From positions 1 through 53,610 of the forward strand of contig JAGVPT010000159.1 in the NCBI GenBank assembly GCA_020052095.1: a stretch of 53,610 bases of DNA, read 5' to 3'. The notes under the pieces were generated by a model, which was not told where the DNA came from, did not search any database, and saw only the letters and a list, made by a program, of their open reading frames with translations. The stretch is from Bacteroidota bacterium. GTDB lineage: Bacteria; Bacteroidota; Ignavibacteria; UBA10030; UBA8401. Below, one piece after another: positions 2,262 through 53,349 of this stretch. The number at the start of each line of letters is the position of its first letter. The stretch's first letter is position 1. A program made the translations under genes and the position numbers.

Positions 2262-3404
2262 ATGGCTGACAACGAAAACCTTATCCAATCATTGCAGACG
2301 AGCTGGAAAAAAGAAAAAGCCGGCGCGGAAACGTATCGCGCGCTCGCATCGCGAGAGACGGACGAGAAACAGAGATCAATTCTCCTGAAACTCGCCGAGG
2401 CTGAAGATCTCCATGCCAAAAAATGGGAAGCACGGCTGAAAGATCTCGGCGCTGCGGCACCAGCAAGAATCGAGTCTTCATTTGAGAAAATGCGCCGTTG
2501 GCTCCTAGTGCGCAGCGGAACGGCGAATGCGGTGCAACGCCTGGAGGAACAGGAAGATCGTGACACGGATCGGTACGAGGCGGAAGCAACGCTCGCAACG
2601 AGTCCGGACGACAAGGCAGCGATGAACGAAATCAAAAAGGAAGAAAAGGTTCACGCAAAGGTCCTGCAATCGATGAATAGCAACGAGCACCCGCAGGCAA
2701 GACTGGATTCGATCTTCAAACGCGAAAAGTGGCACGCCGGACATTCGGGAGGATGGATTGGCCAGGCCGTCTACGGGGCAAACGACGGACTCGGCGCAGT
2801 CTTCGGAATTGTTACCGGGATGGCGGGCTACTCCGGCGGAAGCCATGTTGTCTGGGTCGCGGGAGTCGCCGGTACACTTGCGAGTGCACTTTCGATGGGA
2901 TCGGGCGCATATCTTTCGAGGAAATCTGAACGGGAAGTCTACGAAGCAGAGTTAGAACGAGAGCGAAAAGAAATCGAAGAAAATCCCGAAGAAGAAAAGC
3001 AGGAATTGGAATTGTTTTATCAGTTGAAAGGGTTTACCGCGACCGAAGCATCCATGATGGCGCAACGATTAACCGAAAACCCGGATCAGTTCTTGAAAAC
3101 GCTCGCCCACGAAGAATTGGGACTCTCATCATCTTCATTCCCCAATCCCGTGAAGGAAGCATTCTCCGCCACAGCCGCAACAGCCGTCGGAGGAATCATC
3201 CCCGTGATCCCCTTCATCTTCTATTCCGGTACATTGGCAATCGTACTCAGTCTTGTCATTAGCACGATTGCGCATTTTTTGGTCGGCGTGTTGAAGACAA
3301 TCGTCACCGGGCGAAGTTGGTGGCGCAGCGGGATGGAAATGACGTTGGTGGGATTGCTCACGGCAGCTATCGCATACGCCGTCGGCATGTTTCTGAGTCC
3401 TTAG
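2262..3404 (+). CDS. Rubrerythrin/ferritin-like domain fused to a VIT1/CCC1 transporter (MbfA-like iron exporter)
   Basis: N-terminal E..Y..LA / E..H ferritin-like motifs (EKAGAETY, EDLH, EKVH). C-terminal VIT1 motifs VYGANDGL and SALSMGSGAYLS. Start at ATG 2262 (MADNENL). Confidence 0.88.
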   Translation: MADNENLIQSLQTSWKKEKAGAETYRALASRETDEKQRSILLKLAEAEDLHAKKWEARLKDLGAAAPARIESSFEKMRRWLLVRSGTANAVQRLEEQEDRDTDRYEAEATLATSPDDKAAMNEIKKEEKVHAKVLQSMNSNEHPQARLDSIFKREKWHAGHSGGWIGQAVYGANDGLGAVFGIVTGMAGYSGGSHVVWVAGVAGTLASALSMGSGAYLSRKSEREVYEAELERERKEIEENPEEEKQELELFYQLKGFTATEASMMAQRLTENPDQFLKTLAHEELGLSSSSFPNPVKEAFSATAATAVGGIIPVIPFIFYSGTLAIVLSLVISTIAHFLVGVLKTIVTGRSWWRSGMEMTLVGLLTAAIAYAVGMFLSP

Positions 3405-3491
3405 TCCTTGGTCCTTGGTCCTTGGTCCTGGGTCCTGGGTCCTGAGTCCTGAGTTCCTAATTCTTAATTCATAATTCTTAATTCATAATTC
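3397..3491. repeat. Compound heptamer tandem array: (GTCCNNN)x8 followed by (AATTCWW)x5
   Basis: GTCCTTA GTCCTTG x3 GTCCTGG x2 GTCCTGA x2 ... AATTCTT AATTCAT AATTCTT AATTCAT AATTC. The start of the array overlaps the VIT1 stop codon. Confidence 0.95.
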
Positions 3492-3494
3492 AAC

Positions 3495-4697
3495 ATGCCT
3501 CGTCAGCACAACGCAGTCATCGTCGACGCTCTCCGCACTCCCGTCGGAAAATACGGCGGAGCTCTCAAAGACGTTCGCGTCGATGACATGAGCGCACTCA
3601 TCCTTCGCACTTTGGTTGAGCGAACGAAACTTGACCCGGCACTTATCGAAGATGTTTTTTGGGGATGCGCCAATCAAGCGGGTGAAGACAACCGCAACCT
3701 CGCACGTATGGCTGCCTTACTCGCGGGATTTCCGCAGTCGGTCCCCGGCACAACAATCAATCGGTTGTGCGGCTCTTCTCTCGAAGCTATCATCCAGGGC
3801 GCACGAGCGATCTGGTCCGGAGAGAACCAGGTTGTCATCGCCGGCGGTGCCGAAAGTATGACCCGGGCGCCGTACGTATTTTCAAAGAACGTCTCCGGCA
3901 GTGCGTTGCACGGAAATCTCACGGCATACGACACCTCACTCGGCTGGCGATTTCCTAATCCGAAAATGGAGAAGATCATTCCCCTCGAGAGCATGGGCGA
4001 AACAGCGGAAAATGTTGCAGAAAAATATTTGGTGAAGAGGAGCGATCAGGATGAATTCGCTCTGAATAGTCATCGAAAGGCTGTTGCCGCACGGAGTAGA
4101 CTCGCTGAAGAAATAGTCACCGTGGAAGTCCCAACGAAAAACGGCTCCATAAAAATCTCTGCCGATGAAGGGCCGCGTGAAGACACTTCTATAGAAAGAC
4201 TCTCCAAGCTCAAGCCCGCATTCAGAGAAAACGGATCGGTTACGGCTGGTAATTCGTCGTCGTTGAACGATGGCGCTGCGGGACTCATCATGATGTCGGA
4301 AGAAAAGGCGAATGCTTTCGGATTGAAACCGCTCGCGAGAATAATTTCGAGCGGAGTCGCCGGAGTTGACCCGCGATGTATGGGCATCGGTCCGGTCCCG
4401 GCCACTCAAAAGGCGCTTCAGAAAGCGAATATCAAGACAAGCGATATCGGATTGATTGAACTGAACGAAGCATTCGCCGCCCAGTCGATCGCTGTCATTC
4501 GAGAATTGAAATTGGATGGCTCACTTGTCAACGTGAACGGAGGCGCAATCGCACTCGGGCATCCCCTCGGATGCAGCGGCGCGCGGATCATGACAACGCT
4601 CGTTCACGAAATGCGCCGCCGCGACGTTCGCTTCGGACTTGCAACGATGTGCATCGGAGTGGGACAAGGAATTGCGGTTGTCGTGGAGAAGGGGTGA
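3495..4697 (+). CDS. Acetyl-CoA C-acyltransferase (thiolase), PcaF/PaaJ-like
   Basis: GCANQAGEDNRNLARMA, NRLCGSS (catalytic Cys), LGWRFPNP, NEAFAAQ, GGAIALGHPLGCSG and MCIGVGQG. Confidence 0.95.
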   Translation: MPRQHNAVIVDALRTPVGKYGGALKDVRVDDMSALILRTLVERTKLDPALIEDVFWGCANQAGEDNRNLARMAALLAGFPQSVPGTTINRLCGSSLEAIIQGARAIWSGENQVVIAGGAESMTRAPYVFSKNVSGSALHGNLTAYDTSLGWRFPNPKMEKIIPLESMGETAENVAEKYLVKRSDQDEFALNSHRKAVAARSRLAEEIVTVEVPTKNGSIKISADEGPREDTSIERLSKLKPAFRENGSVTAGNSSSLNDGAAGLIMMSEEKANAFGLKPLARIISSGVAGVDPRCMGIGPVPATQKALQKANIKTSDIGLIELNEAFAAQSIAVIRELKLDGSLVNVNGGAIALGHPLGCSGARIMTTLVHEMRRRDVRFGLATMCIGVGQGIAVVVEKG

Positions 4698-4701
4698 GGT
4701 T

Positions 4702-4734
4702 GGAAGGATGAATTAGGAATTAAGAATTATGAAG
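4702..4734. repeat. Left heptamer arm of the four-helix-bundle cassette
   Basis: GGAAGGATGAATTAGGAATTAAGAATTATGAAG. Inverted relative to 5097-5126 and the exact reverse complement of 9596-9628. Confidence 0.9.
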
Positions 4735-4756
4735 GGGGAAGCATGAGGGGGGGGAA

Positions 4757-5103
4757 GTGGAAAATCTGGTATCGCGAACGAAGAAATTTGCGCTACGGGT
4801 AATTCGATTATACAGTTCGTTGCCAAAACAGACTCTTGCACAAGTTCTTGGCAAGCAGGTATTGAGATCGGGAACCTCGGTTGGCGCGAACTACGAGAAG
4901 CATTCCGGGCGCATTCGTCAGCAAAATTTGTAGCCAAGATGGGAGATTGCGTGAAGGAATTGGAGGAGACTTCTTATTGGTTTGAGCTTCTCCTTGACAC
5001 AAATCTAATAACGACCGAGAGGCTGCATCCATTGCAGGATGAATGCAATCAATTGCTCTCAATCTTCGTGTCCATCATCAAACGCAAGAAAAGAAATTCA
5101 TAA
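4757..5103 (+). pseudogene. Four-helix-bundle protein (TIGR02436 / 23S rRNA intervening-sequence protein family), one-base frameshift; absent from the ORF track
   Basis: GTG start reads MENLVSRTKKFALRVIRLYSSLPKQTLAQVLGKQVLRSGTSVGANY. Adding one C at ~4894 (AAC TAC [C]GA GAA GCA) continues REAFRAHSSAKFVAKMGDCVKELEETSYWFELLLDTNLITTERLHPLQDECNQLLSIFVSIIKRKKRNS*. This matches the family pattern Q.LRSGTSVGANY.EA....S...F..K......EL.ET.YW.ELL. Confidence 0.9.
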
Positions 5104-5126
5104 TTCCTAATTCATGATTCTTCCTT
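5097..5126. repeat. Right heptamer arm of the four-helix-bundle cassette
   Basis: TTCATAATTCCTAATTCATGATTCTTCCTT. It contains the gene's stop codon and abuts the ALDH ATG. Confidence 0.85.
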
Positions 5127-6629
5127 ATGAAAGAATACGCCCTTTACATCAACGGCTCCTTCGTCGACTCCGACACGCTCCAGTCCTTCGCCTCCCTCAA
5201 CCCGTACAACCAGGAGACAGTCGCGCGAATAGCGCGCGCCGGCGTCGCCGATACGCAAAACGCGATTCGCGCGGCACGCAAAGCATTCGACGATGGTCCG
5301 TGGCCGCGAATGCCCCTCACCGAACGAGCCGCGTTCCTGAAAGCCATTTCAGACAAGATCAACGAACGGGCGAAGGAGTTGATTGCGCTGGAGGTGGACG
5401 ATTCCGGCTCGACACTCCGCAAAGCGAAGGAAGATATTTTCCTGAGTGCGCGGTGCATGAATTATTTTTCAAAGCTGGCAGCGAACGAGCTGACCGAGAA
5501 TATCGAGGGACTGTCTAAGCCCGGCTTCTCCCAGAATTTGATTGTGCACGAGCCGATCGGAGTGGTTGCCGCGATTATTCCCTGGAATTTCCCGCTGAAG
5601 ATGGCGGTGTGGAAACTCGGTCCTGCACTCGCTGCGGGGAACACGATTGTGCTGAAACCATCCGAACTGACGCCGTGCACCGCAATGGAACTGGCAAAGA
5701 TCTGCCACGAAGTTGGAATTCCGAAGGGAGTCGTGAATATCATCCCCGGATTTGGGGAAGATGTCGGGGAAGAGCTGGCGAAAAATCCGATGGTGGATAA
5801 AGTTTCTTTCACGGGTTCGACAGTCGTTGGCCGGCGGGTTATGTCGCTTGCTTCCTCTTCGCTCAAGAAATGCACTCTTGAATGTGGTGGCAAATCGGCT
5901 AACATTGTCCTGGACGACGCCGATTTGAATCTCGCGATAGACGGCGCGATGTACGCGATCTTTTATCATGCGGGACAATGCTGTGAAGCCGGAAGCCGGC
6001 TTCTCCTACCGGAAACAATTCACGACGATTTTGTCGGGAAGCTTGTTGCGAAAACTGCAAAAATAAAACTCGGCGATCCTAAACTAGAAACCACCGATAT
6101 GGGACCGGTGATTTCGAAGAAACAACAGGATAGGATTCTCGGATATATAGCTAAAGGAAAATCAGAAAACGGAACGCTGTCGTCGGGCGGCGGGATCCCC
6201 TCCTCCCTTGAATTGAAAAACGGATTCTTCGTAGAGCCGACGATCTTCACAAACGTTGAGAACAAATCGACGATCGCGCAGGAGGAAATTTTCGGTCCCG
6301 TCCTCTCTGTGATCAAATATAAAACGACAGTCGACGCTGTCCGGATTGCAAACGATTCAACGTACGGACTCGGCGCCGGCGTTTGGTCATCGGACAAAGT
6401 AAAAGCACTGAGCATCGCCAGACGGTTACGAGCAGGAACGGTTTGGATCAACGAATGGCACTTGATTTCCGAAAAAGCGCCGTTCGGCGGATATAAACAG
6501 AGCGGCGTCGGCCGCGAGTTTGGTGTGGATGGACTGAAGGAGTACACCGAGACAAAGCACCTCCACATCGACGAAGTCGGCTCGCGCGAAAAGAAATTCT
6601 GGTACGACACGGTTGTGCCGAAAGAGTGA
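5127..6629 (+). CDS. NAD(P)-dependent aldehyde dehydrogenase
   Basis: IIPWNFP, LKPSE, FTGSTVVG, LECGGKS, GQCCEAGSR, EEIFGPV and PFGGYKQSGVGRE. Confidence 0.96.
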   Translation: MKEYALYINGSFVDSDTLQSFASLNPYNQETVARIARAGVADTQNAIRAARKAFDDGPWPRMPLTERAAFLKAISDKINERAKELIALEVDDSGSTLRKAKEDIFLSARCMNYFSKLAANELTENIEGLSKPGFSQNLIVHEPIGVVAAIIPWNFPLKMAVWKLGPALAAGNTIVLKPSELTPCTAMELAKICHEVGIPKGVVNIIPGFGEDVGEELAKNPMVDKVSFTGSTVVGRRVMSLASSSLKKCTLECGGKSANIVLDDADLNLAIDGAMYAIFYHAGQCCEAGSRLLLPETIHDDFVGKLVAKTAKIKLGDPKLETTDMGPVISKKQQDRILGYIAKGKSENGTLSSGGGIPSSLELKNGFFVEPTIFTNVENKSTIAQEEIFGPVLSVIKYKTTVDAVRIANDSTYGLGAGVWSSDKVKALSIARRLRAGTVWINEWHLISEKAPFGGYKQSGVGREFGVDGLKEYTETKHLHIDEVGSREKKFWYDTVVPKE

Positions 6630-6646
6630 CGCTGCGGGGGAATCAT

Positions 6647-6776
6647 GGAGTATGCAGTATGGAGTAGGAAGTAAGCTGTGAGACAAAAGAAATAAATTCG
6701 TAATCACGTTTCACGTCTCAATGCTAGATCTCGACTTAAAACTCAAAACTTTTCACTTTTAACTTTCAACTCTCAC
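6647..6776. repeat. Degenerate heptamer arrays (GGAGTAT-, CACGTYT- and ACTYTYA-type)
   Basis: GGAGTAT GCAGTAT GGAGTAG GAAGTAA ... CACGTTT CACGTCT ... ACTCAAA ACTTTTC ACTTTTA ACTTTCA ACTCTCA. Confidence 0.8.
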
Positions 6777-6794
6777 CACTTACGCGGAGCAACC

Positions 6795-7124
6795 ATGGAC
6801 CACACACTTGTCACAACAAACTTCCAACTCGACGGATACAAGATCACAAAAAACCTCGGCGTCGTTCGGGGGATCGTCGTTCGTTCGCGATCGTTGATCG
6901 GCAATATCGGAGCTGGATTTCAAATCCTCTTCGGTGGAAATATCACCCTCTATACGAATTTGTGCGAGCAAACACGTCGCGATGCGTTCGAGGTGATGAT
7001 CCAACATGCCGCGCAACTCGGCGCAAATTCCGTCATAGGCTTCCGTTACGACGCTACAGAGATTATGGCCGGCGTAAGTGAAGTGCTCGCCTATGGAACG
7101 GCGTGTGTAGTGGAAAAAGTGTAA
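6795..7124 (+). CDS. YbjQ / UPF0145 family protein
   Basis: GYKITKNLGVVRG, GG....YT.L.EQTR..A, GAN.VIG.RYD and EVLAYGTA. Confidence 0.93.
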   Translation: MDHTLVTTNFQLDGYKITKNLGVVRGIVVRSRSLIGNIGAGFQILFGGNITLYTNLCEQTRRDAFEVMIQHAAQLGANSVIGFRYDATEIMAGVSEVLAYGTACVVEKV

Positions 7125-7199
7125 TAAAGTTGTTATTTTAGATGTAGTTTTTCACTTTCAGAATAAGCTGCTTTTTCTCTTCCGCTGAAAGGGGGCTGT

Positions 7200-9503
7200 A
7201 TGATCGCGAACTTGTGTTTCTCCGTTATAGTTACATTCTCTTTCGTTGCTCTTCCCTCCCTCATTGCTCAACAGCGTGTCCTTCTCCGCATAAACAAAGA
7301 TGGGCAACAAGAGGCGATTTCCATTCGCAAAGGCGAACGTACGGAAGATGTTCTTTCGCGCTTGGATAAAATGGCTCCTGATACTCGTGCTTCTGGTCCC
7401 AGAGACTCCATTTTCAATTTCGGTCCAAACGGCGCGACGAATTTTATCGCCAGCCATCAGGACGTGATGTTCCAGTGGTTTGATCCACAGGCAAGCGGAC
7501 TAGTCCTTGAGTTCGGTTGGAGAAACGGCGCTGACCTCGGGACCATCAAAAAGTCTACTATCCGGGCATGGCAAGGAGACAAACGACTTACGTCCCTACC
7601 CTCGAATGCAATGTCTACAAGTGGGACGGGCTTACCGGGAAATATGGGTTACTATAAAAAATCTGACGATGGCGATGGTCTGAAGACGCCCTTCAGGGAT
7701 GATGCAACGGATACGAATTTTGTCGGCGGCAAAGGTGACTCCCTTACGACTCGCTTCGATCCACTCGGGAAAGAAGCCAAATGGTTACTAGGCGGGCGAC
7801 AATTTTCCCTCGTGCCGGACGCGTGGCAGTCCTTCAAGCTCCTTGACTTCGGTGATTCAATGGTGTTTGCCGCCCATCAACCGTTCGGCTTCACGAAGCA
7901 AAACGACACTAAATTTAGTGACCTCGGCGGATCAATAGACGACGTGAACCAGTTGATCGCTGCAAACGGAGTCGATGCATATCCTTTTCATTCCATCAAA
8001 TTCTATGAAGGAAAACCGGCCAGCAATTATGGGTGGCAAATCCGTGACTATGAATGGAATATGTATGTAATTGTCACGTACACTACGTGTCGCCCCCCGA
8101 AGATCACATACACCCAATTGCGCACAACATTGAAGACGACGCCAAGAAAAGTAAGCGCGACCATTTACGGTTATGACTGTGACGGGCTGACTGAGATAAG
8201 CTCTGTCGACCTATTCAATAAAATGAACAGCGGTGCGTATATCCAGTCTCCAATGACGGGGACTGCACCGAACTACACAGGAACCGTCCCCGGCGCAAAT
8301 CCTGGTGACACGGTAACGTATTACATTACCGCAACCTTCTCAAGTAATTCAACTTTAAGAACAGTTAACACAATGTATACTATTTTCAAACCGACGAAAA
8401 ATGTTCTGTATCTCTGGAACGGCCGGAGTGTTCCAGCGGGCTTTGCTTCACCTACCGTCCTGGCAAGATATGGTATGATGTTGGATAGCACAAATGAAAA
8501 AGTGTACTATGATGTTTGGGATGTTAAAAAGTATGGTACCGATGATATCCCAACCTTGCTGCCATATTATGATCACGTCGTCGAATCGACGGGAGATGGT
8601 GGGTATGCCGACTTAACAATGTTCGCCGGTGGATGGCTGGCTAAAGGTACACTGGTAAAGCCGAAATCATGGTTCTGGTCCGATCAGGACCACGGATTCA
8701 TCAGCAACTTTGATGATACAACATTTTCTGATACTGACCCTCATGCAAAATACTTTGGCGTAAAATCGCTCATTAATCAGGATTATCCGTACTCAGCAAA
8801 CGGGAACGCTAGTCTGACGAAGCCGTGGCAGTTGGATCTCGTTGCCAAAACCGATGATGCGTTCGGCTATATCGATACAAAGATGGCAAAGGACACAGTA
8901 ACCTATTGGTACGATCCGAATTATGAAATGCCGCCGTTCCTGAACTGGATGGATCAATTTGTCCCAACAGCCGGTGCTGTCACGCTTTTCAAGGACAAGA
9001 AAACCAACACCATCATCAACGGAGTACGGAACACCGCAGCAGACAGGTCGTGGTATACCGTGTGGCTTGCGTTCGATTACCTCTCCACAGATTTCCGCAG
9101 TGATACTTCAAGGGCAAAATACGCTACGCCTCGCGCCGACCCCAAGTATAAGTGGATTCTTGACGTTGGGAATCCAATTCGGGAATTCGTTCTACCGAAA
9201 TTGATAGTGGGTAATTCTAAGATGGATGTGGCGGTGTCAAGTAAGTTCTCATTGCAGCAAAACTTCCCAAACCCGTTTAACCCCGTTACAGTGATCAGTT
9301 ATCAGTTAGCAGTAAACAGTTTTGCCACGGTGAGGGTGTATGATCTCCTCGGCCGGGAAGTTGTGACGCTGATGAACGAGGAGAAGTCCGCTGGGAGTTA
9401 CACGGTACAATGGGACGCGACACATATTGCCAGTGGCGTCTATTTCTACAGATTGCAGGCCGGCGCATTCTCCGACACAAAAAAACTCTTGCTCTTGAGG
9501 TGA
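7200..9503 (+). CDS. Secreted protein with a T9SS type-A C-terminal sorting domain; function unknown
   Basis: Signal peptide, an Ig-like segment (YTGTVPGANPGDTVTYYITAT) and C-terminal FSLQQNFPNPFNP...SGVYFYRLQAG..S.TKKLLLLR. Confidence 0.88.
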   Translation: MIANLCFSVIVTFSFVALPSLIAQQRVLLRINKDGQQEAISIRKGERTEDVLSRLDKMAPDTRASGPRDSIFNFGPNGATNFIASHQDVMFQWFDPQASGLVLEFGWRNGADLGTIKKSTIRAWQGDKRLTSLPSNAMSTSGTGLPGNMGYYKKSDDGDGLKTPFRDDATDTNFVGGKGDSLTTRFDPLGKEAKWLLGGRQFSLVPDAWQSFKLLDFGDSMVFAAHQPFGFTKQNDTKFSDLGGSIDDVNQLIAANGVDAYPFHSIKFYEGKPASNYGWQIRDYEWNMYVIVTYTTCRPPKITYTQLRTTLKTTPRKVSATIYGYDCDGLTEISSVDLFNKMNSGAYIQSPMTGTAPNYTGTVPGANPGDTVTYYITATFSSNSTLRTVNTMYTIFKPTKNVLYLWNGRSVPAGFASPTVLARYGMMLDSTNEKVYYDVWDVKKYGTDDIPTLLPYYDHVVESTGDGGYADLTMFAGGWLAKGTLVKPKSWFWSDQDHGFISNFDDTTFSDTDPHAKYFGVKSLINQDYPYSANGNASLTKPWQLDLVAKTDDAFGYIDTKMAKDTVTYWYDPNYEMPPFLNWMDQFVPTAGAVTLFKDKKTNTIINGVRNTAADRSWYTVWLAFDYLSTDFRSDTSRAKYATPRADPKYKWILDVGNPIREFVLPKLIVGNSKMDVAVSSKFSLQQNFPNPFNPVTVISYQLAVNSFATVRVYDLLGREVVTLMNEEKSAGSYTVQWDATHIASGVYFYRLQAGAFSDTKKLLLLR

Positions 9504-9524
9504 AATCTACTAGTTTTTTAGTGC

Positions 9525-9628
9525 AAGGATGAATTAGGAATGAGGAATTGTCAGAAATCAAAATGCTTTCTGACCAGCAGCTATAAATATCTGTTCTTCA
9601 TAATTCTTAATTCCTAATTCATCCTTCC
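9525..9628. repeat. 'Empty' inverted heptamer cassette (same arms as the four-helix cassette, short spacer)
   Basis: Perfect 17-bp inverted repeat AAGGATGAATTAGGAAT (9525-9541) / ATTCCTAATTCATCCTT (9610-9626). Confidence 0.9.
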
Positions 9629-9677
9629 TCCTTCAACTTTTTCGTTCATCTACTACTCATATAACCAGGAAACTCGC

Positions 9678-11387
9678 ATGGACATTCAAAATAGAACTGT
9701 TTTAGTCCTCGGCGGCTGGGGACTTGTTGGATCCGCTGTCTGCCGCTCGCTGATGGATGAGCATCCGAAAAGCATCATTATCACATCGCTGAAGGAATCC
9801 GAGGCCAAGGAAGCGGTCGCGCAGATGAAAAGCGAGTATCCGAAAGCCGGTAAGAATTTTTTCCTCCCCTGGTGGGGAAACATCTTTACGCGGCACGAGA
9901 TGAAAGACATCAACCGCGAAGACATCCTGAACAATTCGAAATTTCGCGCAATGTACATCGACGATATCGTTGACGAGCTCACGGAACCGGTCCTTCATCG
10001 CTCGGCGCTGTTTCAGCTTCTCAACCACTACAAGCCGGAAATCGTTATCGATTGCATCAACTCGGCGACGGCAATTGCGTACCAGGATCTTTTCCAGAGC
10101 GCACGCGATGTGATGAAACAGTTGAAGAATGCGAAACCATCCAATCAGGACGCCCTGCACGAAACCATCGAGCGGCTCCTCTGCACTCTCTACGTTCCGC
10201 AACTGATCCGACACGTGCAAATTTTCTACAAATCGATGAAGCAGGCCGGAACAACTATTTATGTCAAGATCGGAACCAGCGGCACCGGCGGTATGGGATT
10301 GAATATTCCGTACACCCACAGTGAAGAAAAGCCCTCGCGCGTTCTGTTGAGCAAGTCCGCAGTCGCCGGGGCGCATACGCTTCTCCTCTTCCTGATGGGA
10401 CGGACGCCCGATGCACCGATCACGAAAGAAATTAAACCGACCGGCGCGATTGCCTGGAAAAAAATCGGCTTCGGACAGATTGCCAAGCGCGGGAAGCCGA
10501 TCGAACTGTACGATTGTCCCCCCGAAAAGGGAATTACATTGCACGATACATTCACCATTAGAGCAAACGAGGGTGTTGCTTCGCCGACACATCAATTGCT
10601 GCAATCGGTTTTCATCGATACCGGAGAGAACGGGATTTTTTCTCGTGGAGAATTCGAAGCGATCTCCACTCCAGGACAAATGGAGTATGTGACGCCCGAA
10701 GAGATCGCGCAGGATGTCATCTACGAGATCAAGGGAGGCAACACCGGGCACGATATTATCAACGCCCTGGACAATGCGACGCTTGAACCGACCTATCGCG
10801 CCGGCTTCATGTTCAACAGCGCGTTGGAAAAAATGAAGGCGCTGGAGAAGGAGCATAACGTCGACAGCGTTGCATTTGAAATACTTGGGCCGCCTCGGCT
10901 TTCAAAGCTCCTTTACGAAGCGTATCTCCTCAAAGTGGGATTTCTCACGATGCGAACGGTGATCCAATCCGCTGCCAAGGAACTCTCGAGCGCCCTGACT
11001 GAGCTCATCCGGGAAAATCAGACGCTACGATCGCACATCATTTCCATCGGGATTCCCATCCTCCTTCCGGATGGAAAAACGCTGCTGCGGGGAAAAGATA
11101 TTAAGATCCCGCAATACCGTGGAGAGAATGTATTGAAGGTGACAAACAAATCGATCGACGACTGGGCGATGAACGGCTGGGTCGACCTCCGCGTCAGCAA
11201 TATGGAACGATGGAAAAACCGGTTCAAGGATGCGATGTCGGCTGTCGAAAAACTTTCGGAGAGCGAGACAAGCTCCCGCTATTTACGGAACAATGAATAT
11301 TGGAAGAATTTCACCGATATCGATCCGGGAAAGATCGTTGGTTGGATTTTTACCGAGGAAGAAAAAGGCAAGAGGATGAAGGCGTGA
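9678..11387 (+). CDS. Uncharacterised Rossmann-fold (SDR-like) oxidoreductase, 569 aa
   Basis: N-terminal VLVLGGWGLVG dinucleotide-binding motif, Gly-rich KIGTSGTGGMG, AGGA RBS. Confidence 0.75.
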   Translation: MDIQNRTVLVLGGWGLVGSAVCRSLMDEHPKSIIITSLKESEAKEAVAQMKSEYPKAGKNFFLPWWGNIFTRHEMKDINREDILNNSKFRAMYIDDIVDELTEPVLHRSALFQLLNHYKPEIVIDCINSATAIAYQDLFQSARDVMKQLKNAKPSNQDALHETIERLLCTLYVPQLIRHVQIFYKSMKQAGTTIYVKIGTSGTGGMGLNIPYTHSEEKPSRVLLSKSAVAGAHTLLLFLMGRTPDAPITKEIKPTGAIAWKKIGFGQIAKRGKPIELYDCPPEKGITLHDTFTIRANEGVASPTHQLLQSVFIDTGENGIFSRGEFEAISTPGQMEYVTPEEIAQDVIYEIKGGNTGHDIINALDNATLEPTYRAGFMFNSALEKMKALEKEHNVDSVAFEILGPPRLSKLLYEAYLLKVGFLTMRTVIQSAAKELSSALTELIRENQTLRSHIISIGIPILLPDGKTLLRGKDIKIPQYRGENVLKVTNKSIDDWAMNGWVDLRVSNMERWKNRFKDAMSAVEKLSESETSSRYLRNNEYWKNFTDIDPGKIVGWIFTEEEKGKRMKA

Positions 11388-11389
11388 GG

Positions 11390-11418
11390 CAATGAACAAT
11401 GAGTAATGAGTAATAAGT
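11390..11418. repeat. Heptamer array (AATGARY type)
   Basis: C AATGAAC AATGAGT AATGAGT AATAAGT directly after a stop codon. Confidence 0.75.
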
Positions 11419-11461
11419 AGCAGCTAGGTGAGATTATTCCTCAAGCCAATGCACTCCGTCT

Positions 11462-11774
11462 CTCGCTCCCACGCCCTCCGCCACAGGCGGACAAGTGCGT
11501 GGGAACAACCCGACTCCGCCTCTGGCTCCAACGCTCCGCGTGGGAGCTTTGCTCTATCCGGCGAGCTACCTTCTCGTTCCCACGCAGACAGACTGTGTAA
11601 AAAGTAATTATTTCCGATGCACGATTTGGAAAATGTAATCGCTGTGGGGAAAACGTTGCACCCATATCAACAATTCGTGATCGGAGACAATTGAATAGAT
11701 GAATCTGTGAAAAATAATCCCCACTGAAAATTCTTGAGATTACTTTTTACACAAGCTCAGAGCGTGGGAACGAG
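11462..11774. repeat. Cluster of three CTCGTTCCCACGC...GCGTGGGAACGAG-type REP palindromes, the last interrupted by a MITE
   Basis: CTCGCTCCCACGC..GCGTGGGAAC; GCTCCAACGCTCCGCGTGGGAGC; CTCGTTCCCACGCAGA[MITE]AGAGCGTGGGAACGAG. Confidence 0.85.
11589..11758. mobile_element. 170-bp MITE with ~20-bp TIRs and a 3-bp target duplication (AGA)
   Basis: Left CAGACTGTGTAAAAAGTAAT; right ATTACTTTTTACACAAGCTC. AGA at 11586-11588 and 11759-11761. Excision restores the palindrome CCCACGCAGAGCGTGGG. Confidence 0.85.
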
Positions 11775-11848
11775 AAACAGGCATCTTTGACAATTGAACA
11801 GAAAAAAGACACATTCATGTAGTCCTGCACATTACTTCCTAATCAAAA

Positions 11849-12949
11849 ATGCGATTTCTCACTGTTGCATCTCTTATCCCGCTTCTCCTCCACTCACAGT
11901 CCAACCCGAATTTCAACGTCTCTCTTCAGGTTGACTATGCCTCTGCCGAGCAGATCATAGAACTGTGCGAAGGACGAATGTACAATGTAAAGAACGTGAC
12001 GGATCTGAGAGGCACTCAACTCGCCGCGGCGACAAGCATGGTGCTTGCACGGAAAGAGCTTCCCCCGGAAACATTCCAGAGAGAGCTCGAAGGGCTGCGG
12101 GACAAATTCAAAAGCTCCGATGATGTTTTCGGTTTTGCTCCCACGCGCGCGCATCTTGCGGAGATCAAAGCGCTGCTTGAAGAGTATAAGAAGCGGCAAC
12201 TCGATCGCCGCGTGCTCGCGACGATTGAGCAGTTCTTCCCGAATGACGCCAGGATATCGGCAACTCTTTCTGTCTACATAGTTGCGTTTGGAAATGAAAA
12301 CGCCTCGGCGTTTGTCCGGCGGGTCGTGTGGCGGGGAAATACGCCGATATTTGTCGGCGAGGGTCAGGGCGAGCCGATTATTGTTGTCAACCTGCAGCGC
12401 CTTGTCGAAGCCAATCCTGCAACGGAAATTCAGTTCATCGAGACCCTCAGCACTCTTGCCCACGAGACATTCCATGCCGTCTTCGAAGTCTATCAGTCGA
12501 CCTCGCCTGTCTGGAGAGCCATCAACACGCGAAGAGAACCGCCATGGGCGCTTGCAGAACTTGTGCAGAACGAGGGCATCGCCTATCGGATCTCTTTTCA
12601 ACAGCGAGCAGGCGGTTCGCTCCCTCCGAATATTTTCAACGGAGCGAGAAATGCAATCCCTGTGCTCAACAGTGCGATGCTCGAACTTATCTCTCCAGGG
12701 GTCTCTTCGTCGCGGGCCCGCGAATTATTGATGAACGCAAACCTCTCCGGCTCTTTTGAAAAGAACTACGGCGCCACTGCCGGCTTGCTGATGGCATTCG
12801 CCATCGATACAAAATTGGGGAGAAATGCACTTACGGAGACTATCACTAACGGGGTCGGAGATTTTTTCCAGAAGTATGACGCGCTAACGAAGCAGTACGA
12901 TGAATTGCCGAGACTGTCAGAAGAGATTAAGAGGGAATTAGTGAGGTGA
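11849..12949 (+). CDS. Putative secreted Zn-dependent protease (HExxH...E, DUF5700-like)
   Basis: Signal-like N-terminus, LAHETFH, and downstream QNEGIA (gluzincin-type third ligand). Confidence 0.75.
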   Translation: MRFLTVASLIPLLLHSQSNPNFNVSLQVDYASAEQIIELCEGRMYNVKNVTDLRGTQLAAATSMVLARKELPPETFQRELEGLRDKFKSSDDVFGFAPTRAHLAEIKALLEEYKKRQLDRRVLATIEQFFPNDARISATLSVYIVAFGNENASAFVRRVVWRGNTPIFVGEGQGEPIIVVNLQRLVEANPATEIQFIETLSTLAHETFHAVFEVYQSTSPVWRAINTRREPPWALAELVQNEGIAYRISFQQRAGGSLPPNIFNGARNAIPVLNSAMLELISPGVSSSRARELLMNANLSGSFEKNYGATAGLLMAFAIDTKLGRNALTETITNGVGDFFQKYDALTKQYDELPRLSEEIKRELVR

Positions 12950-14321: not shown

Positions 14322-14331
14322 GGCCTTTTCT

Positions 14332-14442: not shown

Positions 14443-14443
14443 G

Positions 14444-25016: not shown

Positions 25017-25032
25017 GAGTTCGTGGCGTGTA

Positions 25033-40433: not shown

Positions 40434-40442
40434 GAGTGTGGA

Positions 40443-40555: not shown

Positions 40556-40569
40556 TATTCAATCACGCG

Positions 40570-44311: not shown

Positions 44312-44370
44312 TTCATAATTCTTATTTCATAATTCCTAATTCATCCCTCATCCCTTATCCCTCTTCCCTT
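44312..44370. repeat. Heptamer array (right-arm type)
   Basis: TTCAT AATTCTT ATTTCAT AATTCCT AATTCAT CCCTCAT CCCTTAT CCCTCTT CCCT. Confidence 0.88.
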
Positions 44371-45968: not shown

Positions 45969-46394
45969 TCATTGAGCCGTCGAACGATGGTCAATGTTCC
46001 AGTTTTTCAGCCAGCTGATATCGTGTAACAATTGCATGAGACGGTCCATAGCTTCAGGCGTCATTCTGAAATACCCTGTTGTAAACCGTCGCTTTACATC
46101 GTCGGGTGCTTCTTTAACGAGCAGGCGGACAAAGGTCAACGCTTTCTCCAGGTTCTCTGCGAACTCGTGATCAAGTTTCTCATATCCCTCTCCGTTCTTG
46201 CCGATGCGCTTCATGACTGCGGAGGTATTGACAAGGAACTTGGCGATGAATGTCAAATCGTCGAGCACTAGGTCGTGGCGATGAAGTCTTGAGAGTTCAA
46301 TCAGCGAGGCAAGGTCATCGGGGTGATGAAGTTTCTCCCGGGAAAAATTCTGAAGCGAGGAGACGAGCAACGTGGTTTCCTGACTGATAACCAT
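45969..46394 (-). CDS. Hypothetical helical protein (141 aa)
   Basis: Co-oriented with neighbours; helical amphipathic sequence (L.F.AKF...; LLHDISWLKNW). Confidence 0.7.
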   Translation of the reverse strand: MVISQETTLLVSSLQNFSREKLHHPDDLASLIELSRLHRHDLVLDDLTFIAKFLVNTSAVMKRIGKNGEGYEKLDHEFAENLEKALTFVRLLVKEAPDDVKRRFTTGYFRMTPEAMDRLMQLLHDISWLKNWNIDHRSTAQ

Positions 46395-46462
46395 CTACAA
46401 TTTGCGAAAGTGATTTTTGGTCGGATTCAATATAGAGCATCTTCAAAAGAGAATCAATAAGA

Positions 46463-46587
46463 AATGAGCAATGATCAATCACCAATGATCAATGATGAAT
46501 GATCGATGGAAAACACTGGTATTTGTATCATAAATCATGGTTTTTCATTACTCATTGCTCATTGGTGATTGATCATTGCGCATCATT
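46463..46587. repeat. Inverted heptamer cassette (AATGATC / GATCATT family) with a perfect 21-bp inverted repeat
   Basis: GCAATGATCAATCACCAATGA (46468-46488) / TCATTGGTGATTGATCATTGC (46559-46579). Confidence 0.92.
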
Positions 46588-47645
46588 TATTTCCCGATCA
46601 GGCGCAACGACGCAGTGTACACTTCATCAATACCGATATCGTTCATGCATTTGAAATGGCCTTTCGGGCATTCCGCCCGGCCGATGTGCGAACAGGGGCG
46701 GCACGTGAGGGAATTATTCTCGATAAGTACGGATTCCGTCCCGTACGGGGCGAATCCAAATTCTTTAACCGTCGATCCAAAGATGGCGACCACCTTCCGC
46801 TGTCGGGCGCAGGCCACGTGCATCAGGCCGCTGTCATTAGTGAGGACAATATCGCAGAACTCCATTGCGGCGGCCACTTCCAGCAACGAAAACTCTCCGG
46901 AGAGATCTGTCACTGCATTTTCAGAAACTCGCATTTCTATCTCGGACGCGATCGCGGAGCAGTCGCTTTTATCGGCCGCGCCGCCAAACAGCAGCACTTT
47001 CGCATGCATTTCTTTCGCGAAACGCGCACTCACAGCGGAAAATTTTTCTTTCTGCCAGCGCTTCGTAAAATGTTTTGCCCCGGGACAAACGCCGATCACT
47101 TTATTGAATTCGCTGAGCCGCAGCTTCGCGATTTTTCCCGAAACAGCAAACTGAATTTCATCGGGGATGAAGAGTTCCAGCCCTTTGCCATCGTCCGTAA
47201 TCCCGAATTCGCCAAGCGTCTCGATGTAGCGATCTGCGATGGGGACGTTTCCGGCATAAATGTTGCGTTTCAAATGCACAAGCTGCCATCGCTCATAGAG
47301 CCGCTTGTTGACAGTGACGACCTCCTTCGTGTTGCAGAAATTGCGCAAGTAAATCGTCCTCAGATTGTTGTGGATATCAACAACAAGGTCGTACTCCTCC
47401 GCGCGAAGAGTGTCCCGGAGCTCCTGAAGGCCGCGAAACCCGCGCGCATCATCGAACTCGTGAATGACCGAGAGATGATGGTTGAATTTCACGAGGTCCG
47501 CGTATTCCTGCTTCACTACGAAATCGATCCTGGCTTTGGGACCCGCAGAGGCGCGCATCGCTCGAAGAAGCGGCGATGAAAGAACGATGTCGCCGATGGA
47601 ACTTAATCGAAAGACAACTGTTTTAGTAGGTAATGATCGTTTCAT
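46587..47645 (-). CDS. GT9 family LPS heptosyltransferase (WaaF-like)
   Basis: RLSSIGDIVLS, CPGAKHFTKRW, TNDSGLMHVA, AIFGST and CRPC...C...HFKCM. Confidence 0.9.
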   Translation of the reverse strand: MKRSLPTKTVVFRLSSIGDIVLSSPLLRAMRASAGPKARIDFVVKQEYADLVKFNHHLSVIHEFDDARGFRGLQELRDTLRAEEYDLVVDIHNNLRTIYLRNFCNTKEVVTVNKRLYERWQLVHLKRNIYAGNVPIADRYIETLGEFGITDDGKGLELFIPDEIQFAVSGKIAKLRLSEFNKVIGVCPGAKHFTKRWQKEKFSAVSARFAKEMHAKVLLFGGAADKSDCSAIASEIEMRVSENAVTDLSGEFSLLEVAAAMEFCDIVLTNDSGLMHVACARQRKVVAIFGSTVKEFGFAPYGTESVLIENNSLTCRPCSHIGRAECPKGHFKCMNDIGIDEVYTASLRLIGK

Positions 47646-47747
47646 ACCAAAGTTCTTGTGAGCGTGGTTCAAAATAGCGTTTTGATTTTCTACTTGCAAC
47701 GTAAATTGGTAGTCGGGTCTTCTGATTCTTATGTCATTGATTAGCCA

Positions 47748-49617: not shown

Positions 49618-49623
49618 CGCCGG

Positions 49624-49783
49624 AGTCCGGGGTCCTGAGTCCGTAGTCCGAGGTCCTGAGTCCGTAGTCCAAAGTCCAAGGTCCGTAGTCCGGGGTCGGC
49701 AGATCAGAGTATTGAATCCTGTCTCCCGAATCCTGAATTCTGTATTCAGAATTCCTAATTCTTAATTCCTATTTCATAATTTC
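49624..49783. repeat. Longest compound heptamer array: (GTCCNNN)x10 plus ATYCTGW and AATTCYT units
   Basis: GTCCGGG GTCCTGA GTCCGTA GTCCGAG GTCCTGA GTCCGTA GTCCAAA GTCCAAG GTCCGTA GTCCGGG ... ATCCTGT CTCCCGA ATCCTGA ATTCTGT ATTCAG AATTCCT AATTCTT AATTCCT ATTTCAT. Confidence 0.95.
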
Positions 49784-49788
49784 AAAGA

Positions 49789-50886
49789 ATGCGCTTCCTC
49801 TACACAAAGTGGACTCCTCAATCGCAGACTGACGAGCAGCGGCTGCAAAACCTTATGCAGCTCTTTAGTCATTTGCTCATCCAAACGAGCGGCGATGTCG
49901 AAGAAGCGATGGAATGGCTGCGCCAGCTCGCGGAAGAATACGGCATCTTCGACGAAAATCTCTCCATGGAAGATCTGATCGCGAAGTTGAAAGAGATGGG
50001 CATCATCGAAGAAGTGAACAACACGCCTGTGCTAACGACGAAGGGCGTACAGAAAATCAGGCAGGACGCACTCAAGGAGATTTTTTCATCCCTCAAAAAA
50101 ACACCGATGGGCTCGCATGAAACGCCGCACACCGGCGCGGGCGTTGAACGCCTGAGCGAGACGAAGAAATGGGTCTTCGGCGATATGCCGACGAATATCG
50201 ACCTTACGTCGACCATGACGAATGTATTCAAGCGGGATGGAATCGAGAATTTTAATTTGACGGAAGACGATCTCGAAGTCTACGATACCGAGAACCTCTC
50301 GACGTGTGCGACTGTGCTCATGCTCGATATCAGCCACAGCATGATACTGTATGGAGAGGACCGCATCACGCCGGCAAAGCAGGTAGGATTGGCGCTCAGC
50401 GAGCTGATCATGACGAAATTCCCGCGCGACTACATCGCGCTGGTCGTTTTCGGGGACGATGCGAAGCTCGTCAGCATCAATGAGCTCCCATTTCTTAACG
50501 TCGGGCCGTATCACACCAATACGAGGGCCGGATTACAGCTTGCCCGGAATCTCCTTCGGCGCTGCGGCAATGTGAATAAGCAAATTTTCATGATTACGGA
50601 CGGCAAGCCATCTGCGATGTTCGACGACGCCGGAAGACTCTACAAGAACTCGTTCGGACTCGACCCGAAGATCGTGAACAAGACTCTCGATGAGGCCGTT
50701 GCATGCAGGCGCGAGAAAATTACCATCAGCACGTTCATGGTTGCGCGCGATCCGTATCTCATTAATTTTGTGGAAGAATTGACGAAGGCAAATCATGGGC
50801 GGGCATACTATTCTTCCCTTAATAACCTTGGACAATTTATTTTCGTCGACTATATCCGGAACAGACGCAAACTTTTTTCTTCATGA
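49789..50886 (+). CDS. von Willebrand factor A domain protein (partner of the upstream AAA+ ATPase)
   Basis: MIDAS DISHS, YHTNT and MITDGKPS. Confidence 0.92.
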   Translation: MRFLYTKWTPQSQTDEQRLQNLMQLFSHLLIQTSGDVEEAMEWLRQLAEEYGIFDENLSMEDLIAKLKEMGIIEEVNNTPVLTTKGVQKIRQDALKEIFSSLKKTPMGSHETPHTGAGVERLSETKKWVFGDMPTNIDLTSTMTNVFKRDGIENFNLTEDDLEVYDTENLSTCATVLMLDISHSMILYGEDRITPAKQVGLALSELIMTKFPRDYIALVVFGDDAKLVSINELPFLNVGPYHTNTRAGLQLARNLLRRCGNVNKQIFMITDGKPSAMFDDAGRLYKNSFGLDPKIVNKTLDEAVACRREKITISTFMVARDPYLINFVEELTKANHGRAYYSSLNNLGQFIFVDYIRNRRKLFSS

Positions 50887-52182: not shown

Positions 52183-52194
52183 AAGGCGGATTGA

Positions 52195-52848
52195 ATGATA
52201 CGAACGTATTTTTTTCTGGCATTTGTCTCGGCGACATTCCTTGCGGTGATTGGAGGATGTAGCGATATGGGATCGAATCCGCCGAAGCCCGCCGGCCCGC
52301 CCCATATTACATCCTTCCAGCCCGACTCGGCTTTTGCAGGCGACACGCTCAAGATCGTTGGGACAGATTTCGGAGCGAGCAAGGGATCGAGCACAGTTAC
52401 AGTCGGGGGCAAAAACGCCGACACGATCTACCTCTGGAGCGCGAATGAGATTCGCCTGAAGATCCCTGCTGCAGCCGTGACAGGAAATGTCACCGTTACC
52501 GTGGGCGGAACAGCCAGTAACGCGGTGACCTTCAAAGTGCGCGGAACTGTCGTCGCGGATGTGTCATTTGTGCTTGATGTCGCTCCCGTCTTTGCGAACA
52601 ACGGTTGCGTTGGCTGCCATGGGGGTACCAACAACTTGAGAGTAGACACGTACGCTCGGTTAATGTTGGGCACGAGCCTCAACGGACCTGTCATCACACC
52701 CGGAAACGGGGAAGGAAGCGTCATCATCAAGAAGCTGCGAGGCACGGCGTCATTCGGCGACCGGATGCCGCAAGGGGGACCGTTTCTCAGCAATTCGGTT
52801 ATCGACAAGATCTCTCTCTGGATTACCCAAGGCGCAAAAAATAATTAA
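52195..52848 (+). CDS. Lipoprotein with an IPT/TIG domain and a planctomycete-type cytochrome c domain
   Basis: Lipobox IGGC; IPT (PHITSFQP...GDTLKIVGTDFG); VSF..DVAPVF...CVGCH ... RMP ... WITQGAKNN. Confidence 0.85.
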   Translation: MIRTYFFLAFVSATFLAVIGGCSDMGSNPPKPAGPPHITSFQPDSAFAGDTLKIVGTDFGASKGSSTVTVGGKNADTIYLWSANEIRLKIPAAAVTGNVTVTVGGTASNAVTFKVRGTVVADVSFVLDVAPVFANNGCVGCHGGTNNLRVDTYARLMLGTSLNGPVITPGNGEGSVIIKKLRGTASFGDRMPQGGPFLSNSVIDKISLWITQGAKNN

Positions 52849-52880
52849 CATCGTAGCGCAATAATAGGAGTACACAATTG

Positions 52881-53270
52881 ATGAAGTCTCTCTTTTCCGT
52901 CGTTTTCATTGCGGCAATCGTATTCGCATCCGGCGCTACATCACAGGAGAAGAAAAGCACAAAGAAGCCGACAGTTTCATTTTCAAACGATGTCTTCCCC
53001 ATCATCAAGAAGCGGTGCCTCCCGTGCCACGCAGCGGACAGCGAGAACCCGAGCGAATTAATTGTGGAGACGCTCTCTGATCTTGTCAAAGGAGGCAAGC
53101 ACGGAAAACCGATCATCCCGAAGAACGGCGATGTGAGTATCCTCGTTCAAAAAATAAAGCCGAATCCCCCTTTCGGCGAGCAGATGCCCCTGATGACGAA
53201 AAAGAAATTAACCGACGAAGAGGTCGAACTGTTCAAAACGTGGATTGACCAGGGGGCGAAGAAGAACTAG
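52881..53270 (+). CDS. Exported monoheme planctomycete-type cytochrome c
   Basis: AGGAG RBS, signal peptide, VSFSNDVFPIIKKRCLPCH ... QMP ... WIDQGAKKN. Confidence 0.88.
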   Translation: MKSLFSVVFIAAIVFASGATSQEKKSTKKPTVSFSNDVFPIIKKRCLPCHAADSENPSELIVETLSDLVKGGKHGKPIIPKNGDVSILVQKIKPNPPFGEQMPLMTKKKLTDEEVELFKTWIDQGAKKN

Positions 53271-53349
53271 GGTGGTAGGGATGAGGGAAGAATGATGAAT
53301 TAGGAATTAGGAATTGGGTATTAGGGATTGGGAATAAGGAATCGGGAGT
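53269..53349. repeat. Heptamer array (left-arm, purine-rich type)
   Basis: AGGGTGGT AGGGATG AGGGAAG AATGATG AATTAGG AATTAGG AATTGGG TATTAGG GATTGGG AATAAGG AATCGGG. Confidence 0.88.

Follow-up and report, generated by a model that had tools for sequence, protein, structure and literature searches.

Tandem repeats built of 7-nt units have been known in cyanobacteria since about 1990 and have served there for strain typing. Heptameric simple sequence repeats (SSRs) are known as (i) the short tandemly repeated repetitive sequences (STRR) of Calothrix and Nostoc, (ii) GGGAATC-type repeats in Xanthomonas, and (iii) TAACTGA in Beggiatoaceae, Microcystis, and some Bacteroidetes (PMC4692102, PMC4679880). 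Here we describe heptamer arrays in a 53,610-nt stretch of DNA, hereafter the window, which is contig C264 (JAGVPT010000159.1) of a 3.90-Mb, 281-contig metagenome-assembled genome (MAG) of the Ignavibacteria (G000; GCA_020052095.1; 48.6% G+C), together with a gene for a four-helix-bundle protein of family PF05635 that lies between inverted arrays. The repeats are of a known kind in a new lineage and evolve by unit-wise slippage, and the genome shows the whole heptamer phenomenon outside cyanobacteria; the tie between the arrays and the four-helix gene appears to be unpublished.

In the literature on these repeats, MacGregor 2015 (PMC4679880) documents Microcystis arrays of mixed heptamers, indels of 7 nt that distinguish Cyanothece strains, and heptamers in five Bacteroidetes, and relays Mrazek's slippage proposal, while Rehm 2015 (PMC4692102) describes the Xanthomonas (GGGANTN)n repeat, in which positions 1-4 and 6 are conserved, together with inverted pairs and with spacers that are shared but vary in length. 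A 2022 preprint (10.1101/2022.06.06.494920) reports that heptamers affect the expression of recF and recO in Nostoc, and it invokes a binding protein as yet unidentified. The passages of MacGregor 2015 and Rehm 2015 considered here give neither an origin nor a function for the heptamers and draw no link to a four-helix gene; literature searches, with subscription journals and supplements outside their coverage, returned no paper joining PF05635, S23p, or Avd with heptamer repeats, and none combining the terms Ignavibacteria, tandem repeats, and intergenic.

The arrays of the window and its genome resemble the heptameric SSR class (STRR, or LSSR for long simple sequence repeats) in (i) 7-nt head-to-tail units with period 7 dominant, (ii) a mostly intergenic position, often near start codons, (iii) length differences between strains in unit steps, seen here on metagenome contigs, (iv) mixed unit families per array, a core with one to three variable positions, and inverted pairs, and (v) shared spacers in sister species that differ in length and sequence. 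The Beggiatoaceae unit TAACTGA is itself present, as its complement, at 9288-9321. On the other hand, STRR in the strict sense, with units STRR1-3, belong to (heterocystous) cyanobacterial hosts whereas the host here is an Ignavibacteria MAG, and the comparison with cyanobacterial STRR drawn in the first-pass annotation, made from the letters of the window, is therefore reduced to a resemblance.

Arrays were defined by lag-7 identity of at least 19 matches in 28 positions, then merged and trimmed, with a stricter cut at 23/28 or more; the null for the period scans was a third-order Markov simulation of the genome. The lag-7 scan yields 26 arrays in the window and 315 in the genome, covering 16,208 nt in total, and before merging 483 lag-7 regions in the genome compare with 6 in the simulation. 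Under the strict cut, regions number 0 at lag 5, 1 at lag 6, 135 at lag 7, 48 at lag 8, 1 at lag 9, 117 at lag 14, and 44 at lag 21, against 0 at every lag in the simulation. Tandem Repeats Finder (TRF; at least 3 copies, score of at least 40) assigns period 7 to 193 of 303 loci genome-wide and period 8 to 46, compared with 3 loci in the simulation, and on the window it returns 70 rows, 52 of them with period 7, 14, or 21 and nearly all with 0% indels. The lag and TRF counts therefore place period 7 far above 5, 6, and 8. The intergenic, almost indel-free arrays reported in the first-pass annotation are thus a genome-wide feature (0-6 in the simulated genome), and the cores that it named, GTCC, AATT, CATT/AATG, AGTT, GATT, GTGC, and CAGT, are all visible when the arrays are chopped into units. 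A few cores dominate across the genome, the commonest being TCATT/AATGA (75 arrays), AGTA (56), GTCC (51), AATTC (29), and CAGT (28). A second, minority class of period-8 arrays has the same look (66 regions; families GGAATNNT and CAAGATTG). The longest octamer array seen, at 6390-6625 of contig C20 of the same genome, comprises about 24 GGAATNNT units, immediately after which come the inverted TCCATTNN units.

A close described counterpart of the four-helix gene and its flanks is the 23S rRNA intervening sequence (IVS) of Leptospira and Coxiella, in which a PF05635 open reading frame (ORF) lies in the loop between terminal inverted repeats that could form a long stem (PMC4990558); Warrier 2016 gives this IVS layout and describes S23p as a pentamer, and PF05635 has been equated with Avd (PMC10053308). 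The window contains one array-gene-array unit of comparable layout, hereafter a cassette, whose parts are as follows (here and below, arrays carry no assigned strand, and the scan or program that detected each part is given in brackets):

4708-4742, left arm of the cassette, GAATTAN units (lag-7 scan).
4772-5064, plus strand, broken PF05635 gene (23S rRNA IVS protein or S23p, Avd-like four-helix bundle; profile matches).
5094-5122, right arm of the cassette, NTAATTC units, the reverse complement of the left arm; it runs up to the start codon of gene 5127-6629 (lag-7 scan, inverted score 20.0).

The gene copy of the window is matched by the profile in two different frames (E 8.7e-8, 34.0 bits with a cut-off of 33.8, and E 1.2e-5, 27.2 bits), contains one in-frame TAG, and is preceded by a G-run. 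Genome-wide, the profile search gives 13 matches at 12 loci, all of which have short-period repeats nearby; by eye, at least 10 show complementary repeats on both sides, and the locus on contig C80 runs off its contig. Each cassette has its own unit, such as TAGGCAN, CAGTANN, GGTCCRA, GAGACGT, AAAGTTG, or GAATTAN, with an octamer at one locus. The nine full-length copies encode proteins of 112-129 amino acids with pI 9.0-10.2, and a G-run precedes the start codon in eight of them.

Comparison with the 23S rRNA IVS highlights three differences: (i) the IVS sits in rRNA whereas the cassette lies between protein genes, a thiolase gene and the next gene, which places it outside the IVS proper; (ii) the arms are tandem heptamer arrays of 30-225 nt instead of a unique 28-bp repeat (PMC4990558); and (iii) the IVS is cut out by RNase III whereas for the cassette such cleavage is hypothetical, and its copy in the window is broken. 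The Avd protein of diversity-generating retroelements shares the fold family and the basic character (PMC10053308), but such a retroelement carries, beside its Avd-like gene, a reverse transcriptase together with template and variable repeats, and the cassette has no reverse transcriptase nearby, the single reverse transcriptase match of the genome being located on another contig.

The same layout recurs at one locus each from 29 other genomes of the order, and further in Anaerolineales, Chloroflexia, Cyclobacteriaceae, Lacihabitans, the cyanobacteria Moorena and Egbenema, a Gemmatimonadaceae MAG, Luteimonas, and Xanthomonas euroxanthea. In the last of these, inverted GGGAAT-type units stand on either side of the single gene copy; GGGAATC-type repeats are abundant in two other Xanthomonas species (Rehm 2015; PMC4692102). 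Within the order, CAGAATN arms are kept across families. The pairing of the arms was scored by gapped inverted alignment of the 200-nt left and right flanks of 69 PF05635 loci, drawn from Ignavibacteria, Cytophagia, Chloroflexota, Cyanobacteria, Gemmatimonadota, and Xanthomonadales, after the exclusion of 17 others (one G000 locus lying at the end of its contig, two that are truncated, and 14 with weaker or partial matches); RNA duplex energy of the same flanks was dropped as an arm score, being noisy and GC-driven. The median score is 17.5 within loci versus 8.0 between loci, 52 of the 69 loci lie above the 95th percentile of between-locus scores and 26 above the 99th, and at 35 loci the own right flank is the best of all 69 partners. 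Among control genes of G000 encoding 90-200 amino acids, 6/789 score above 20. The cassette of the window scores 20.0, and its own right flank ranks best among the 69.

Five same-genus genomes retain the gene order over about 55 kb, G004 being covered for 20 kb only. In all five, the spacer corresponding to 4708-5122 measures 20-125 nt and holds neither array nor gene, and the whole array-gene-array unit is therefore one insertion. Candidate empty-site joints between 4726-4741 and 5095-5097, found in metagenome runs X1, X4, and X5, were not counted as evidence, their shorter side being 22-27 nt; they most likely come from other GAATTAN/NTAATTC hairpins.

The relation between arrays and gene was analysed across a class-wide sample of 120 other genomes, each at least 90% complete, of which 94 contain a PF05635 match (E of 1e-8 or lower) and 26 lack one. 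Arrays were counted in whole genomes as exact runs of four CAGTNNN or AATTCNN units, with the reversed controls TGAC and CTTAA counted as well; the controls are heptamer families themselves, hence four tested families. At least one of the four occurs in 60 of the 94 genomes with the gene versus 1 of the 26 without it (Fisher 1.3e-8, Spearman 0.49), that is, arrays are almost confined to genomes of the class that carry the gene. None of the nine gene-less genomes of at least 3.7 Mb has arrays of the four families, and the contrast runs in the same direction in all five informative genera (g40, g49, g62, g65, and g69); g44 and g63, which also contain both kinds of genome, have no arrays of these families at all. 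In g62, g65, and g69, genomes without the gene give 0 hits and genomes with it 46-512, the exceptions being G092 (11 hits) and G117 (1 hit), both in g65. A family-agnostic lag-7 scan of an order-level sample detects 2 regions in 650 kb from eight genomes with 0-2 gene copies and 35 regions in 702 kb from eight genomes with 8-17 copies, and ten further gene-less genomes give 4 regions in 751 kb, two of which look real. By comparison, reverse transcriptase (PF00078) is found in 28/121 genomes, arrays occur in 14/27 genomes that bear it versus 61/120 overall, and the array-richest genomes of the class have no match to it; the writing of arrays by reverse transcription is unlikely, as arrays are not linked to PF00078 across the class. 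Gene presence across 120 related genomes, with the gene wrapped in repeats in at least six phyla, offers a concrete handle on an old descriptive puzzle.

We put at about even chances the reading that these are heptamer microsatellites that change by whole units and that the four-helix cassette either brings arrays as its arms or encodes a protein that keeps them. Arrays are observed to gain and lose whole 7-nt units, and blocks of two and three units would be copied too, in line with the enrichment of lags 14 and 21 (117 and 44 regions versus 0 in the simulation). A base change in one unit would then be copied to its neighbours, and such copying would generate runs of near-identical units, in-phase walks between families, and variation at few unit positions. 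The cassette may carry arrays in as arms, or its basic, pentameric protein may maintain them; after loss of the gene, the arms would persist and drift as hairpins and solo arrays.

Several observations weigh against this reading. Across the class, the statistics are uncorrected for phylogeny, and genomes lacking the gene are on the whole smaller; hits do not rise with gene dose, as 2-3 copies can accompany 428 (G134, 2 copies) and 512 hits, whereas the median is 2.5 for genomes with at least 10 copies; three of the eight high-copy genomes have only about 1 array per 100 kb; 34 of the 94 gene-bearing genomes have none of the four families; and the gene-less genome G122 carries a few arrays. Within the genome, a four-helix gene is found at a distance of about 300 nt or less for only 14 of the 315 arrays and an inverted partner at 200 nt or less for only 51/315, among 301 solo arrays only 54 have at least half of their 7-mers in common with the arms of resident cassettes, and no resident cassette was seen for the largest family, TCATT/AATGA, with its 75 arrays. 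Moreover, among the matches listed there is no PF05635 in the syntenic 55 kb of the five same-genus genomes, though each has 5-9 arrays there. The link to the four-helix gene suggested in the first-pass annotation, which proposed correlating array density with gene copy number, thus stands in part: arrays flank the gene and are nearly confined to its carriers, but they do not scale with its copy number.

The solo arrays also bear on an alternative taken from the IVS, in which the inverted arrays would be RNase III stems of a selfish IVS-like cassette and the solo arrays its leftover arms, with no host function. The layout fits that of the ORF-bearing 23S rRNA IVS, where the S23p ORF occupies the loop of a stem cut by RNase III (PMC4990558); the arms co-vary within a locus; 203/239 spacer arrays lie between co-directional genes and would be co-transcribed; and resident arm families are enriched among solo arrays, 54/301 against 23/301 when the same 7-mer sharing is computed with 27 foreign cassettes. 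Nevertheless, turnover would have to be very high to give 301 solo arrays from 12 gene loci, whereas some solo arrays have kept their place across species; no PF05635 remnants were detected beside solo arrays at E 0.001 or better, and the 7-nt unit of the stems is left unexplained. We regard this alternative as rather improbable. The narrower idea that solo arrays are fresh cassette remnants was rejected, given the lack of remnants alongside and among the listed syntenic matches and the coverage of 54/301 by the arms.

A plainer alternative is that the arrays are neutral slippage microsatellites favouring 7-nt units, in the manner of Mrazek's proposal, and that cassettes merely settle or survive where array hairpins exist, the repeats being habitat and not cause. 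Strains differ by whole-unit indels, heptamers reportedly form the commonest long SSR unit in many bacteria (MacGregor 2015, Rehm 2015), most arrays have no gene nearby, gene number gives no dose relation, and single arrays are as structured as shuffles (z -0.08), all of which this alternative accommodates. It accounts less readily for the sharp differences among same-genus genomes that presumably share their replication machinery (g62, g65, g69), for the recurrence of few cores in dozens of spacers and across phyla, and for the arrival of the array-gene-array unit 4708-5122 as one piece; purely neutral slippage of this kind seems to us a minority possibility.

The position of the arrays relative to genes is also informative. 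A crude ORF map covers 87% of the genome, and 79% of array bases fall outside it; 230 of the 315 arrays are mostly intergenic and 51 mostly within ORFs, the other 34 straddling both. Of 239 arrays assigned to spacers, 203 are flanked by genes running in the same direction, a kind of spacer that makes up 1850/2510 genome-wide; 106 of these 203 start no more than 15 nt from the upstream stop codon, and 66 end no more than 15 nt from the downstream start. The arrays show a moderate bias in how they are oriented to transcription (GTCC 8 sense and 22 antisense, TCATT 14 and 35, AATTC 5 and 3), and a strand rule for the arrays was rejected since the bias is moderate only. The idea of unstructured spacers was likewise set aside, as single arrays fold like shuffles (minimum free energy per nt -0.098 versus -0.095, mean z -0.08, 230 arrays). 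The reverse-complement partners that 51/315 arrays have within 200 nt compare with 0-1 in controls.

By analogy with the ring proteins TRAP and HutP, which read periodic triplets, the arrays might be binding platforms for the pentameric four-helix protein, each 7-nt unit of single-stranded RNA or DNA taking one subunit; selection by the binder would keep the core and the strict period, and the flanking genes would be controlled in their translation or RNA processing. Consistent with such platforms are the conserved core and restricted variable positions, the arrays abutting stops (106/203) and starts (66/203) within 15 nt, and the families kept in place across species, with CAGAATN arms across families of the order. 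The proteins are basic and S23p is a homopentamer (Warrier 2016; PMC4990558), array presence follows the gene without dose, as for a trans-acting factor, and in Xanthomonas (one genome searched) the S23p gene is flanked by GGGAAT-type heptamers that are abundant in other Xanthomonas (Rehm 2015). Against them stand the only moderate orientation bias (GTCC 8/22 and AATTC 5/3, sense/antisense), the many unrelated unit families in one genome, the largest without a cognate cassette, the similar behaviour of period-8 arrays, and the small event-based position bias, and we consider a binding role of this kind unlikely.

Beyond this genome, exact runs of four GGGAATC units turn up in widely separated lineages, namely Xanthomonadales, several cyanobacteria, Gemmatimonadaceae, Acidobacteriota, Elusimicrobia, Pirellulales, a Thermoplasmata archaeon, and a Vibrio. 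The heptamer vocabulary recurs across phyla. More speculatively, and with considerable doubt on our part, heptamer arrays in general, including cyanobacterial STRR and the Xanthomonas SSRs, could be made or kept by a pentameric S23p/Avd-like protein, one subunit per unit; if this were true, they would represent a protein-dependent repeat system spreading with its gene and not a by-product of polymerase slippage.

Returning to the reading in which units change whole and cassettes supply or keep arrays, the internal structure of the arrays shows how variation is distributed among the seven positions. Lag-7 mismatches fall in the best three contiguous phases at a fraction of 0.737, versus 0.630 for a uniform null (229/315 arrays, those long and variable enough to be used), and at 0.692 versus 0.652 (z 5.6) when each distinct variant is counted once; variation is therefore not uniform over the unit. 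In unit logos, GTCC is followed by D-D-R, with C at about 1% per position and 28 of 64 triplets in use, AATTC by H and then by T in 58/58 units, and TCATT by R and then N. At least four contiguous invariant phases are seen in 21/225 arrays versus 8.9 expected. The grammar of four fixed and three variable bases described in the first-pass annotation is thus a soft tendency with 4 to 6 conserved positions, because the variable positions are themselves restricted and the event-counted position bias is small: the bias of variation by position holds, whereas the strict rule fails. The accompanying argument, that ordinary slippage cannot give such a pattern, fares similarly: non-uniform variation and the dominance of period 7 are as it expected, but the argument itself is weak, because strains differ by whole units, super-periods of 14 and 21 nt occur, and most of the bias disappears once copied variants are counted once.

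Three arrays display unit families joined or changing along their length:

3393-3493, GTCC to AATTC array filling the entire spacer between genes 2109-3404 and 3495-4697 (lag-7 scan).
25031-25115, GTCC to AATTC array, in phase (lag-7 scan).
44312-44370, AATTC to CCCTCAT array, in phase (TRF, lag-7 scan).

GTCC units pass in phase into AATTC units at 3393-3493 and 25031-25115, and the unit changes stepwise along 3393-3493 and 44312-44370. At 25031-25115, AAGTCCT and AATTCCT, one base apart, stand in one array, and in the corresponding spacer of the same-genus genome G001 the GAGTCCT of the window corresponds to GAGTTCT. Concatenation of families in one array, as first described, is real in the sense that in-phase joins are seen, but such families are only one substitution apart. 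These joins are predicted by divergence in place with local copying; separately written blocks are therefore unneeded.

The array at 3393-3493 starts exactly at the conserved Leu-Ser-Pro codons of the upstream gene, takes over its last seven or so codons, and provides its TAG stop, while at the other end it overwrites an AGGA motif that relatives carry ahead of the next start. No array is present in this spacer among seven same-genus genomes. The downstream thiolase gene, 3495-4697, has its best relatives, at 70-78% amino acid identity, in MAGs labelled Ignavibacteriales, Ignavibacteriaceae, or Bacteroidota. Such arrays matter for annotation, as they overwrite gene ends and ribosome-binding regions and break assemblies.

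Change between strains was followed by aligning contigs, not reads, of four metagenome runs to positions 3001-13000 of the window, which contain, besides the arrays above, a complementary pair:

6645-6682, AGT-core array, partner of 6734-6783 (TRF, lag-7 scan).
6734-6783, ACT-core array, the complement of AGT (lag-7 scan).

One contig of run X4 lacks 28 nt, or four units, at 3417 within the GTCC array of 3393-3493, and one 10.3-kb contig of run X3 lacks 8+3+2+5+3 = 21 nt, or three units, over 6719-6745 at array 6734-6783. Related strains thus differ inside arrays, by 28 nt and 21 nt, and arrays accordingly change in whole units; the first-pass annotation had proposed comparing strain reads for unit gain, loss, or substitution. 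In the same X3 contig, a different sequence stands in place of another array-bearing spacer. Many contigs with unrelated flanks match the AATTC stretch 3458-3493, which is therefore a repeat shared widely.

Between species, arrays occupy shared spacers in several same-genus genomes, with unit numbers and sequences differing, at a coding-DNA identity of about 75%. Certain arrays are found only in the window (e.g., 3393-3493), and others keep their place across species. The inverted pairs and shared positions comprise:

12948-12981, GATTTNC array, left arm of a hairpin between convergent genes (lag-7 scan).
13029-13043, TCGTAAA units, right arm of the 12948-13043 hairpin (TRF).
14331-14362, GAATTAT array, left arm (lag-7 scan).
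14411-14443, AATTCNT array, right arm (lag-7 scan).
23024-23066, TCATTGN array just upstream of gene 21952-23004, minus strand (lag-7 scan).
46456-46504, CAATGAN array, left arm (lag-7 scan).
46544-46579, NTCATTG array, right arm (lag-7 scan).
49717-49781, AATTC array whose end lies 8 nt ahead of the start codon of gene 49789-50886 (lag-7 scan).

The ACGATTN...NAATCGT hairpin 12948-13043 is also found in four of the five same-genus genomes, AATTC arrays lie in the spacer of 14411-14443 in four of five, the TCATTGN family stands at the place of 23024-23066 in all four compared (G004 is not covered), and the spacer of 49717-49781 holds a GAATTAN...NTAATTC hairpin in G001, G005, and G009. The arms 46456-46504 and 46544-46579 are near-exact reverse complements over about 21 nt, including one off-consensus unit. 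In the interval from gene 45969-46394 to gene 46587-47699, G001, G007, G005, and G009 have about 2.1 kb that is absent from the window, where only this CAATGAN/NTCATTG hairpin is found.

The remaining arrays of the window are:

1469-1510, period-7 array of ATTGNNN units (lag-7 scan, TRF).
9288-9321, CAGTNNN-periodic stretch in the 3' part of ORF 7200-9503 (lag-7 scan).
9597-9635, AATTC array located upstream of gene 9678-11387; GAATTAG-type units stand about 60 nt upstream (lag-7 scan).
11379-11420, AATGAGT array (TRF, lag-7 scan).
22947-22987, GTGCGNN array (TRF, lag-7 scan).
31287-31320, GATTTAC array (TRF, lag-7 scan).
37513-37559, AGTTGTA (AAGTTNN) array, broken by an inserted element (TRF, lag-7 scan).
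37702-37738, CAGAATA array (lag-7 scan).
40433-40486, AGTCC array (TRF, lag-7 scan).
40510-40557, TCTCTTN array (TRF, lag-7 scan).
49619-49699, GTCC array with a 21-nt super-period (TRF, lag-7 scan).
53276-53349, GAATTNG array (TRF, lag-7 scan).

The stretch 9288-9321 is either an array captured by a coding sequence or a periodicity arisen by chance within a conserved motif; several contigs of run X4 have only this stretch in common. The surrounding ORF 7200-9503 (767 amino acids), whose C-terminal part resembles a type IX secretion sorting domain, is inserted by comparison with the five same-genus genomes, all of which have the flanking genes 28-101 nt apart. At 11497-11784, 286 nt of a 461-nt spacer are missing from the 10.3-kb contig of run X3, which has 30 other letters instead, and this segment is probably another small inserted element. 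The ORF 29391-31544 contains 120-nt tandem repeats at 29583-31159 (about 13 copies with 68% matches, also period 243), which are protein-level repeats unrelated to the heptamers, and in the five same-genus genomes it has only weak partial matches outside the syntenic position. Finally, the AAGTTNN array is interrupted at 37559-37687 by a 129-nt element with perfect 17-bp inverted ends, which looks like a miniature transposon that landed in the array; the spacer holding it measures 394 nt here versus 54-63 nt in four same-genus genomes.

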